Below, piece by piece: positions 12,001 through 15,000 of a stretch of DNA of 64,000 nt. This DNA is from Escherichia coli. Its GTDB lineage: Bacteria; Pseudomonadota; Gammaproteobacteria; Enterobacterales; Enterobacteriaceae. Within the stretch, counting starts at the first letter, position 1, and every line of letters begins with the position of its first letter. The stretch lies in assembly GCF_002854065.1 (NCBI RefSeq), contig NZ_CP024147.1. One strand, 5' to 3'. Made by a program: the position numbers.

Positions 12001-15000
12001 AGACTGACCATCCTGCGCTGGAAAACGTCAATTTCGCCCTGAAACCCGGTCAGATGCTGGGTATCTGCGGGCCGACTGGTTCCGGCAAAAGTACCCTGTT
12101 GTCGCTCATTCAGCGTCATTTCGACGTCAGCGAGGGGGATATTCGCTTTCATGATATTCCTCTGACGAAGTTACAACTCGATAGCTGGCGTAGCCGCCTG
12201 GCGGTAGTTAGCCAGACGCCATTCCTTTTTTCTGACACCGTGGCGAATAACATCGCGCTGGGTTGCCCGAATGCCACCCAGCAAGAGATTGAGCATGTCG
12301 CGCGGTTAGCCAGCGTACATGACGATATTTTGCGTCTACCGCAAGGTTACGATACAGAGGTGGGCGAGCGCGGTGTGATGCTTTCCGGCGGGCAAAAACA
12401 GCGTATCTCCATTGCTCGTGCGTTATTAGTCAACGCGGAAATCCTCATCCTTGATGATGCGCTTTCGGCGGTGGACGGACGCACAGAGCACCAGATCCTG
12501 CATAACCTGCGTCAGTGGGGACAGGGAAGAACGGTAATAATCAGTGCCCATCGCCTTTCTGCACTGACGGAAGCCAGTGAAATTATTGTGATGCAGCACG
12601 GACATATCGCCCAGCGTGGCAATCATGATGTGCTGGCACAACAAAGCGGCTGGTATAGCGATATGTATCGCTATCAACAACTGGAGGCGGCGCTCGACGA
12701 CGCTCCGGAAAATCGCGAGGAGGCCGTCGATGCGTAGTTTTAGCCAACTGTGGCCAACTCTCAAGCGCCTGTTAGCGTACGGTTCACCGTGGCGTAAACC
12801 GCTGGGGATTGCGGTCCTGATGATGTGGGTTGCGGCGGCGGCAGAAGTCAGTGGGCCGCTGCTTATCAGCTATTTTATCGACAATATGGTAGCGAAAAAT
12901 AACCTGCCGTTGAAAGTGGTTGCAGGGCTGGCTGCGGCGTATGTTGGGCTACAACTGTTTGCCGCCGGGCTACATTACGCGCAGTCGCTGCTGTTTAATC
13001 GGGCGGCAGTAGGCGTAGTGCAACAGTTGCGTACCGACGTGATGGATGCTGCGTTACGCCAGCCATTAAGCGAGTTTGATACCCAACCCGTCGGGCAGGT
13101 GATTTCCCGCGTCACTAATGACACTGAAGTGATCCGCGATCTCTACGTTACCGTAGTGGCAACTGTCCTGCGCAGTGCCGCACTGGTGGGCGCGATGCTG
13201 GTGGCGATGTTCAGCCTCGACTGGCGAATGGCGCTGGTGGCGATAATGATTTTCCCGGTGGTGCTGGTGGTAATGGTGATATATCAGCGTTACAGCACGC
13301 CGATTGTCCGTCGTGTGCGCGCTTATCTGGCAGATATCAACGACGGCTTTAACGAAATCATCAATGGCATGAGCGTTATCCAGCAGTTCTGTCAGCAGGC
13401 GCGATTTGGCGAACGCATGGGTGAGGCCAGTCGTTCACACTATATGGCGAGGATGCAAACCCTGCGCCTCGACGGTTTTCTGCTGCGTCCGCTGCTGAGT
13501 CTGTTTTCATCGCTCATTCTTTGTGGCTTGTTGATGCTGTTTGGCTTCTCCGCCAGCGGCACCATTGAAGTGGGCGTGTTGTATGCGTTTATCAGCTATC
13601 TTGGGCGACTTAACGAACCCTTAATCGAACTGACCACGCAGCAGGCGATGCTGCAACAGGCTGTTGTTGCTGGTGAGCGCGTGTTTGAGCTGATGGACGG
13701 ACCGCGCCAGCAATATGGCAATGATGATTGCCCGTTACAGAGTGGCACCATCGAAGTCGATAACGTGTCATTTGCTTATCGCGATAACAATCTGGTGCTA
13801 AAGAACATTAATCTCTCTGTGCCTTCGCGCAATTTTGTGGCGCTGGTCGGGCATACCGGCAGTGGCAAAAGCACCCTCGCCAGTTTATTGATGGGCTATT
13901 ACCCGCTAACGGAAGGTGAGATTCGCCTTGATGGTCGTCCATTAAGTTCGCTAAGTCACAGCGCGCTGCGCCAGGGCGTGGCAATGGTGCAGCAAGATCC
14001 GGTGGTGCTGGCGGATACCTTCCTCGCCAACGTGACGCTGGGACGTGATATCTCCGAAGAACGCGTCTGGCAGGCGCTGGAAACCGTGCAACTGGCGGAG
14101 CTGGCGCGTAGCATGAGCGACGGTATTTACACGCCGCTGGGCGAGCAGGGGAATAATCTCTCAGTCGGGCAAAAGCAACTGCTGGCACTGGCACGCGTGT
14201 TGGTGGAGACGCCGCAAATCCTGATCCTTGATGAGGCAACCGCCAGCATTGACTCCGGTACTGAACAGGCGATTCAACATGCTCTGGCGGCGGTGCGTGA
14301 ACATACCACGCTGGTGGTGATTGCTCATCGCTTATCGACCATTGTTGATGCCGACACCATTCTGGTGCTTCATCGTGGGCAAGCCGTGGAGCAGGGCACT
14401 CACCAGCAACTGCTGGCGGCCCAGGGACGCTACTGGCAGATGTATCAACTGCAACTTGCGGGCGAAGAGCTGGCAGCCAGCGTGCGTGAAGAGGAATCAT
14501 TGAGCGCCTGAATAGCGCAATATTTCATCGTTGGTGCAAAAATGTAACGCACTGTGCACTGTCATAGTGCGTTTTCATTTTCAAACTTCTTAACTTCCTG
14601 CTCTCTTTCTCATTTTTCATTTCTGGCACACCGCTTGCAATATCTTCTTCGTGTAGCAGAACCATTACCGAATTCTGACCGGAGGGGATCTATGAAGCTG
14701 GTGACCGTGATAATCAAACCATTCAAGCTGGAAGACGTTCGTGAAGCGTTATCTTCCATTGGTATTCAGGGCCTGACCGTCACCGAAGTGAAAGGTTTCG
14801 GGCGTCAGAAAGGGCATGCCGAGCTGTACCGGGGGGCGGAATACAGCGTCAACTTCCTGCCAAAAGTAAAAATTGATGTGGCGATTGCTGATGACCAACT
14901 CGATGAAGTGATCGATATCGTCAGTAAGGCGGCTTACACCGGAAAAATTGGCGACGGCAAAATCTTTGTCGCTGAATTGCAACGCGTCATTCGTATTCGT

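Follow-up and report, generated by a model that had tools for sequence, protein, structure and literature searches.

Three pairs of neighbouring genes on the Escherichia coli chromosome, mdlA/mdlB, ybaB/recR and glsA/ybaT, meet end to start with an overlap or with hardly a nucleotide between them, and they raise the question of whether translation of each downstream gene depends on translation of the gene before it. All three lie in one stretch of 64,000 nucleotides (nt) of contig NZ_CP024147.1 (assembly GCF_002854065.1), which we call the window. An earlier reading of the window (the original prediction) had proposed that these tight junctions reflect coupled expression of functionally paired genes. 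In this study, we found that they are best described as three ordinary operon junctions at which downstream translation is probably tied, at least in part, to upstream translation, with an anatomy that differs from pair to pair. The proposal of coupling was reasonable for all three pairs and had already been published for ybaB-recR; the three cases are not equivalent.

Geometry of the three junctions

Gene annotation was taken from the closest E. coli record (strain 100416, NZ_CM128593.1) and transferred to window coordinates, after which all 47 complete genes in the window translated cleanly. The strength of each Shine-Dalgarno (SD) sequence was expressed as the duplex energy between the 22 nt 5' of a start and the 3' end of 16S rRNA, for all 47 gene starts. 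The features at the three junctions are as follows.

10965..12737, + strand: mdlA coding sequence, SmdA-family ATP-binding cassette (ABC) half-transporter; GTG start, TAG stop; NF008055, 1264.8 bits (cut-off 845)
12717..12723, + strand: mdlB SD, GAGGAGG; 6-nt spacer to the ATG; duplex -11.8 kcal/mol
12730..12737, + strand: mdlA/mdlB overlap ATGCGTAG, 8 nt common to the mdlB start and the mdlA stop
12730..14511, + strand: mdlB coding sequence, SmdB-family ABC half-transporter; NF008056, 1178.3 bits (cut-off 746), aligned from residue 1
36541..36569, + strand: sigma-70-like promoter match in the 3' end of dnaX, 5' of ybaB; consensus match only
36775..37104, + strand: ybaB coding sequence, YbaB/EbfC nucleoid-associated protein; TIGR00103
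37102..37106, + strand: TGATG, with the A at 37104 common to the ybaB stop (TGA, 37102-37104) and the recR start (ATG from 37104)
37104..37709, + strand: recR coding sequence, no SD 5' of the start; TIGR00615; duplex -1.5 kcal/mol, rank 43 of 47
54676..55608, + strand: glsA coding sequence, glutaminase A; NF009020; stop TGA at 55606-55608
55600..55604, + strand: weak SD-like AAGGG in the last glsA codons, 6 nt before the ybaT ATG; duplex -4.9 kcal/mol
55611..56903, + strand: ybaT coding sequence, APC-family permease, 2 nt after the glsA TGA; tandem ATGs at 55611 and 55614

The junction distances were -8 nt for mdlA/mdlB, -1 nt for ybaB/recR and +2 nt for glsA/ybaT, in agreement with the RefSeq annotation of the closest E. 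coli record. All three had been tabulated in a paper of 2023, with mdlA/mdlB marked as a complex (PMC10666635, supplement file 3). The original prediction had correctly placed the mdlB ATG (12730) 8 nt within mdlA, whose TAG occupies 12735-12737, and the ybaT ATG (55611) 2 nt past the glsA TGA. It had also described an overlap of the recR ATG with the ybaB TGA at 37102-37106; the two genes do overlap, by 1 nt, and the five positions are the extent of the TGATG motif. The anti-SD duplex energies separated the three starts, which ranked 2nd (mdlB, -11.8 kcal/mol), 30th (ybaT, -4.9) and 43rd (recR, -1.5) among the 47.

We then considered whether the overlaps could be annotation artefacts, in which wrong start calls hide true starts further 3'. 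Automatic gene callers often choose starts that give short overlaps, and ybaT has a second ATG one codon 3' of the annotated start. The NCBIfam profiles for SmdB and RecR, on the other hand, match MdlB and RecR from residue 1-2. In-frame stops stand 4 codons 5' of the recR start and 3 codons 5' of the ybaT start, and recR has no alternative start before codon 11. For mdlB, a genome scan with the MdlB protein gave 80 loci from 80 Enterobacteriaceae species (84-99% protein identity), and the ATG, the SD and their spacing were kept in 77-79 of these; the mdlB frame is closed within 14 codons 5' of the conserved ATG in 31 of the 80. Mis-called starts are ruled out by the profile alignments, the conserved start sites and the upstream stops, and we regard this explanation as extremely improbable.

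The window holds 29 same-strand neighbour pairs, three of them spaced +2 nt or closer. Genome-wide, 707 of 2,987 unidirectional E. coli pairs (24%) lie between -8 and +6 nt (PMC10666635), and at this rate 6.9 of the 29 would be expected, so that the observed number is on the low side. As a set, the tight junctions are not more frequent than chance in the window. The individual junctions are not chance, because their geometry is conserved across species. Overlaps of -4, -1 and -8 nt are the classes reported to be enriched (PMC10666635; PMC12548453).

Each of the three junction regions was carried by 5,311-5,424 of 5,426 complete E. coli genomes. A stretch of 81 nt at the junction was identical in 4,977 genomes for ybaB/recR and 4,797 for glsA/ybaT, and in only 3 for mdlA/mdlB, because the source strain carries a rare mdlAB allele. 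In this allele the SD, ATG and stop are unchanged. A 3.7-kb mdlAB query found matches in 5,423 of the 5,426 genomes and was 100% identical to strain 100416; at the level of at least 99% identity, the mdlAB region (10900-14600) was shared by only 364 of the 5,423. The rare allele may be a recombinant segment or one from a divergent lineage.

According to the original prediction, internal promoters and ribosome binding sites belonging to the downstream genes would argue against coupling. Consensus scans, which are weak evidence, gave no sigma-70-like promoter match within about 500 nt 5' of mdlB or ybaT, and none inside ybaB 5' of recR. A ribosome binding site was present at mdlB (strong and conserved) and at ybaT (weak), and there was none at recR. 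A scan for terminator-like sites, also weak evidence, found none at any of the three junctions; one weak stem-loop lies within mdlA (12562-12579), and the number of such sites was within shuffle expectation. A scan of the whole window at Rfam gathering thresholds detected no known RNA element at any of the three junctions.

The mdlB start site is embedded in the mdlA coding sequence

The mdlB SD is written in the codons of the MdlA tail, Glu-Glu-(Ala), and we examined how this arrangement is kept among the 80 Enterobacteriaceae species. The 8-nt overlap of the form ATGCGTAR was found in 79 of them, and the one exception has an overlap of 14 nt. Eight nucleotides is the shortest overlap possible in this reading phase, because overlaps of 2 or 5 nt cannot hold an ATG together with a stop. 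The MdlA C-terminal tail carries indels of 3-24 nt directly 5' of the SD; in the alignment, GGAGG, the 6-nt spacer, ATG, CGT and TAR nevertheless remain in register. GGAG stands at exactly 6-nt spacing before the mdlB ATG in 77 of the 80 species. At the two Glu codons of the SD, GAG was counted 143 times and GAA a single time, compared with 41% GAG among Glu codons elsewhere in mdlA. Since the species are related, a nominal binomial p-value for 143:1 overstates the case; even so, these codons differ plainly from synonymous sites that are free to vary. These alignments indicate that the mdlB SD is kept by selection on the nucleotide sequence.

Intragenic SDs are typical of native overlapping pairs, and removal of the SD lowered reinitiation in four of five E. 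coli pairs (PMC6728339). The mdlB SD is therefore no argument against coupling. The same study indicated that intragenic SDs at overlaps usually assist coupling instead of replacing it (PMC6728339). It has also been reported that cyuR(decR)-mdlAB forms one operon without an internal transcription start (PMC11408624).

RNA structure at the mdlB start

As coupling could also act by RNA unfolding, we examined the predicted structure around the mdlB start.

12690..12735, + strand: predicted hairpin pairing the mdlB SD and AUG with mdlA codons 20-40 nt upstream; -21.4 kcal/mol, prediction only

If the SD and AUG were locked in this hairpin, a ribosome translating mdlA would release them by melting it, which is the mechanism favoured by PMC7538156. 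In the minimum-free-energy fold of the source strain, GGAGG and AUG are paired with 12690-12706. The 121-nt context scores z = -2.0, an equal stability being reached by 7 of 200 shuffles. The cost of opening the mdlB region from -18 to +10 was 14.2 kcal/mol (rank 6 of 47), and the median of the 47 window starts was about 9. The outer pairs (GCGCU with AUGCGU, CC with GG) are able to form in most species.

The comparison across orthologues did not bear the hairpin out. RNAalifold over the orthologues gave no consensus structure across the mdlB SD or AUG. On an alignment of 81 sequences, 74.0% of the cells of the hairpin were paired, compared with 73.2% after shuffling, and compensatory pairs were fewer than in the shuffles. 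The pairs that are well kept sit in columns fixed by protein coding. Opening the 80 orthologous mdlB sites cost 12.6 kcal/mol, compared with 13.8 at random intragenic positions of the same genes, so that these sites are not more structured than their background. A conserved occluding hairpin thus gained no support from RNAalifold, from pair counting or from the accessibility comparison. On this sequence evidence, a dedicated, conserved RNA switch at the mdlB start is not supported, and coupling by the melting of such a hairpin seems rather unlikely. The RNA at the mdlB site resembles that of an ordinary coding region; it is less open than at a start standing alone, and an upstream ribosome would help initiation there.

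MdlA and MdlB carry complementary ATP-site motifs

The original prediction had called the genes functionally paired. This held for MdlA and MdlB, on the basis of their complementary ATP-site motifs, and the case is weaker for YbaB/RecR and for glsA/ybaT. MdlA and MdlB are SmdA and SmdB equivalogs, well over the curated cut-offs. MdlA has the canonical signature LSGGQ and a Walker B motif, ILILDD, in which Asp takes the place of the catalytic Glu. MdlB keeps the catalytic Glu (Walker B ILILDE) and has a non-canonical signature, LSVGQ. The combination LSGGQ with ...LDD was found in MdlA of 79 of the 80 species, and LSVGQ with ...LDE in MdlB of all 80. In heterodimeric ABC exporters, a complementary pattern of this kind leaves one degenerate and one consensus ATP site, and it is a hallmark of TM287/288 and BmrCD. 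Both of these heterodimers are among the closest solved relatives, with BmrD and TM288 as the top heterodimer hits. On sequence grounds, MdlA and MdlB are thus functionally paired, and their complementary ATP-site asymmetry points to an obligate heterodimer. A PDB search returned no MdlAB structure, and the searched sources yielded no biochemical proof of an MdlAB heterodimer.

The genes for Serratia SmdAB, Bacillus subtilis BmrCD (PDB 7m33) and Thermotoga TM287/288 (PDB 3qf4) are adjacent half-transporter genes, as are mdlA and mdlB. The likeness extends to the subunits, one with Asp for Glu (here MdlA, as read from sequence) and a partner with a non-canonical signature (MdlB). The pairs differ in that one study found different phenotypes for single deletions of mdlA and mdlB (PMC11408624). 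A need for equal amounts of the two membrane subunits would fit the 4.5-fold enrichment for heteromeric complexes among tight gene pairs and short overlaps (PMC10666635). MdlA and MdlB were essentially undetected in the proteome supplement of Mori 2021.

The ybaB/recR junction

The ybaB-recR pair has the longest history of the three. It has been described that the ybaB stop and the recR start have their A in common, that recR lacks a ribosome binding site, and that translation is coupled, with citation of Yeung 1990 and of Mahdi and Lloyd 1989 (PMC9610160). The ybaB(orf12)-recR operon of Mahdi and Lloyd 1989 and Yeung et al. 1990 is the same locus, with no difference from the one examined here; its coupling has been in the literature since 1989-90 and is textbook for the locus. 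The match at 36541-36569 is the only promoter-like site nearby and agrees with the reported internal dnaX promoter for ybaB-recR (PMC9610160).

What this study adds to the described operon is the range of the motif. The junction AAGATGCCGTTCTGATGCAAACC, which lacks an SD, recurs in Klebsiella, Serratia, Proteus (as TAATG) and Yersinia, that is, in four of the four other Enterobacterales genera sampled, and is not found in Photobacterium or Plesiomonas. In protein data from a ybaB::kan mutant of the Keio collection, RecR had a log2 fold change of -1.64, about 3-fold lower (PMC8547470, supplement), and the authors ascribed the ultraviolet sensitivity of the ybaB mutant to low RecR (PMC8547470).

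To our knowledge, YbaB and RecR form no known complex. YbaB is abundant and RecR is scarce.

Database entries of E. coli and Klebsiella include YbaB-RecR fusion proteins of 311-312 amino acids. In the E. coli entries one extra T (CCGTTTCTGATG, equivalent to window positions 37099-37106) deletes the stop and joins the two frames. We treated the fusions as probable indel errors, because the same contigs have a frameshifted dnaX and/or htpG, and one entry has a garbled YbaB.

The glsA/ybaT junction

The geometry of the glsA/ybaT junction is only loosely conserved in the genomes compared. YbaT-like genes next to a glutaminase gene in Edwardsiella, Serratia fonticola and Morganella each have a weak to moderate SD, and in Kerstersia the glutaminase and YbaT-like genes are unlinked. 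With a 2-nt gap, reinitiation was 5-70% lower, the size of the drop differing between gene pairs (PMC10666635). YbaT is not the glutamine transporter of the glutaminase acid-resistance system and is not required there, and its role has been called elusive (PMC6250119). A ribosome-profiling paper on acid stress made no mention of glsA or ybaT. Coupling at glsA-ybaT is possible, with the weakest support among the three pairs.

In Edwardsiella, Serratia fonticola and Morganella, the two genes belong to a four-gene cluster for an amino-acid permease, a glutaminase, a YbaT-like permease and a MarC-family protein. The ybaT-like/marC junctions of these clusters measure -16, +4 and -8 nt.

How downstream translation may be tied to upstream translation

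The geometry, SD strengths, conservation and operon context of the junctions, together with the ATP-site asymmetry, lead us to infer the mechanism of coupling and its efficiency as follows. In the operons decR-mdlA-mdlB, ybaB-recR and glsA-ybaT, a terminating ribosome would sit on or next to the downstream start. The field has two models for what follows, reinitiation by the terminating ribosome (PMC6728339; PMC10666635) and de novo initiation aided by unfolding (PMC7538156). For recR we rank reinitiation first, because nothing is present there to recruit a free 30S subunit. RecR would come mainly from ribosomes that finish ybaB and start again 5 nt further 3', the P site shifting from TTC (37099-37101) to AUG (37104-37106). 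The efficiency is probably low, as expected because YbaB is abundant and RecR scarce. At mdlB, the SD just behind the terminating ribosome may hold the post-termination 30S or 70S, or may recruit a fresh 30S to the freshly unfolded site. In either case the ribosome would be placed on the AUG 2 nt 5' of the last P-site codon. SD-assisted reinitiation and facilitated de novo initiation at mdlB are not separated by the data, and the arrangement would favour near-equal synthesis of both halves of an asymmetric heterodimeric ABC exporter. At glsA-ybaT, the weak SD and the 2-nt gap may permit some reinitiation or facilitated de novo initiation, and we rank a mixture first.

Several observations weigh against tying the downstream genes to their neighbours in this way. 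Among the three pairs, experimental support exists only for ybaB-recR and is indirect, and the drop of RecR in ybaB::kan could include transcriptional or mRNA-stability effects. The ybaB-recR spacing is +3 nt in Photobacterium (TGATAAATG) and +137 nt in Plesiomonas, and its median over 1,695 species is +13 nt (PMC10666635, supplement). From this median and from the spacers outside the Enterobacterales it follows that the overlap is a feature of the Enterobacterales and is not required for the ybaB-recR pair. The spacing between the glutaminase and YbaT-like genes is +5 nt in Edwardsiella, +2 nt in Serratia fonticola, as in E. coli, and +92 nt in Morganella. At mdlB, the strong SD could drive fully independent initiation. 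Deletion of mdlA gave a phenotype with cefazolin and vancomycin, deletion of mdlB gave none, and the authors suggested that the two proteins may act independently (PMC11408624). In the Keio design the last 21 nt of a deleted gene are retained (PMC8547470). For mdlA these are 12717-12737, from the first G of the SD, and we therefore take polar effects on mdlB in that mutant to be uncertain. Finally, ribosome profiling after depletion of ribosome recycling factor (RRF) argues against reinitiation as the main way in which E. coli genes are coupled. The depletion left the ratios between neighbouring genes unchanged, overlapping pairs included, which supports de novo initiation aided by unfolding (PMC7538156).

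The 137-nt spacer of Plesiomonas carries an inverted repeat (AACGCCCTG...CAGGGCGTT) directly 5' of recR. It is possibly a terminator or an element of the repetitive extragenic palindromic (REP) kind that uncouples ybaB and recR.

A rival explanation is independent initiation, in which fresh 30S subunits bind at the downstream genes' own ribosome binding sites, whether or not the upstream gene is translated, and tight spacing reflects only genome compaction and drift of the stops and starts. It would be most plausible for mdlB, with its near-consensus SD at optimal spacing, kept by selection, and for ybaT, with a usable SD and a spacing that ranges from 2 to 92 nt. The overlapping pair bioBF uses de novo initiation (PMC6728339), and the results of RRF depletion point in general to de novo initiation (PMC7538156). 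Independence does not account for recR, which has no SD and whose product falls about 3-fold when ybaB is deleted. For mdlB, the exact 8-nt overlap in 79 of 80 species despite the indels in the MdlA tail is hard to explain by drift, and opening the initiation region takes about 14 kcal/mol, where the 47 starts have a median of about 9. Of five native E. coli -4 overlaps put to the test, four showed coupling, which usually required the SD (PMC6728339). On balance, we judge independent initiation to be an improbable account of the three junctions, and at least partial coupling remains our preferred reading.

A more elaborate version of coupling can be imagined, in which GGAGG, the 6-nt spacer and the 8-nt overlap of mdlA/mdlB form a hand-over device with co-translational assembly, and UGAUG at ybaB/recR forms a fixed attenuator. 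The anti-SD of the ribosome that terminates on mdlA would stay bound, and this ribosome would move 2 nt backwards to begin MdlB. The half-transporters would then be inserted side by side, giving the asymmetric heterodimer instead of inactive homodimers. At ybaB/recR, the SD-less UGAUG would set RecR at a small, constant fraction of YbaB. We consider this version doubtful, and clearly less probable than independent initiation.

Comparison with known coupled pairs

The three junctions resemble the coupled pairs hyfHI, astDB, ydbH/ynbE as well as menDH (Huber et al. 2019, PMC6728339; PMC10666635), in which the stop and start overlap or lie a few nucleotides apart and the SD is often in the upstream open reading frame (ORF). 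This class is likewise enriched for subunits of heteromeric complexes. The pairs tested with reporters were all -4 (ATGA) overlaps, whereas the three pairs here lie at -8, -1 and +2 nt. The -8 phase of mdlA/mdlB differs from them in needing a 2-nt backward repositioning, and recR differs in lacking the SD that four of the five needed. In the trp operon, trpE-trpD and trpB-trpA have overlapping stops and starts and are coupled neighbours (Oppenheim and Yanofsky 1980, cited in PMC8547470 and PMC6728339). The coupling there was shown genetically, and the trp genes encode subunits of one enzyme, while YbaB and RecR do not. The trpB-trpA junction is itself TGATG.

Other features of the window

The genes of this E. 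coli chromosome segment run in the order clpX, lon, hupB, ppiD ... decR, mdlA, mdlB, glnK, amtB ... acrAB, acrR, mscK ... dnaX, ybaB, recR, htpG, adk, hemH, aes, gsk ... copA, glsA, ybaT, a TolC-family gene and siiEA. The Rfam scan gave the following hits, all at the gathering threshold and all expected for this region.

803-898, - strand: sraA
18550-18646, + strand: signal recognition particle (SRP) RNA, ffs
36055-36119, + strand: DnaX frameshift element
50340-50423, + strand: sroB
51721-51798, both strands: naRNA4, a REP-type element

The gene pdeB (ylaB) is split by IS1 into an EAL part (19161-20048, - strand) and a CSS-motif N-terminal part (20980-21495, - strand), with the transposase ORF (20466-20969, + strand) between them. 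At the place of window positions 19161-21495, strain 100416 has instead an integrase gene beside ffs, a difference of 413 nt. mscK (29408-32767) encodes 1,119 amino acids, compared with 1,120 in strain 100416, owing to an in-frame 3-nt indel. The genes hemH (+ strand) and aes (- strand) converge, and their stops overlap by 4 nt at 41609-41612 (CTAA, with TAA for hemH and TAG for aes). An ORF of 150 amino acids at 44152-44604, between gsk and ybaL, is a hypothetical protein in strain 100416; it reached no Pfam cut-off and gave only a sub-threshold match to DUF7336.

On the 3' side of ybaT, an intact TolC-family outer-membrane gene (57241-58596, Pfam OEP) is present; the same gene is frameshifted in strain 100416. 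Next comes a giant SiiEA/BapA-like adhesin gene, of which only the start lies within the window (up to 64000). The K-12 gene-pair list has cueR 3' of ybaT (PMC10666635).

Significance

What the original prediction observed is correct, and it is operon architecture of an ordinary, previously described kind. It carries little weight as a discovery, as -8, -4 and -1 nt are the commonest spacings of co-directional prokaryotic genes and the three pairs had already been tabulated. With its nucleotide-level conservation within mdlA, the mdlB SD illustrates dual coding constraint cleanly, if on a small scale. For genetics in E. coli, the junctions call for caution, in that deleting or tagging mdlA, ybaB or glsA can alter the level of the downstream protein. 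The differing phenotypes of mdlA and mdlB deletions, in particular, are best read alongside the junction and the heterodimer signature.

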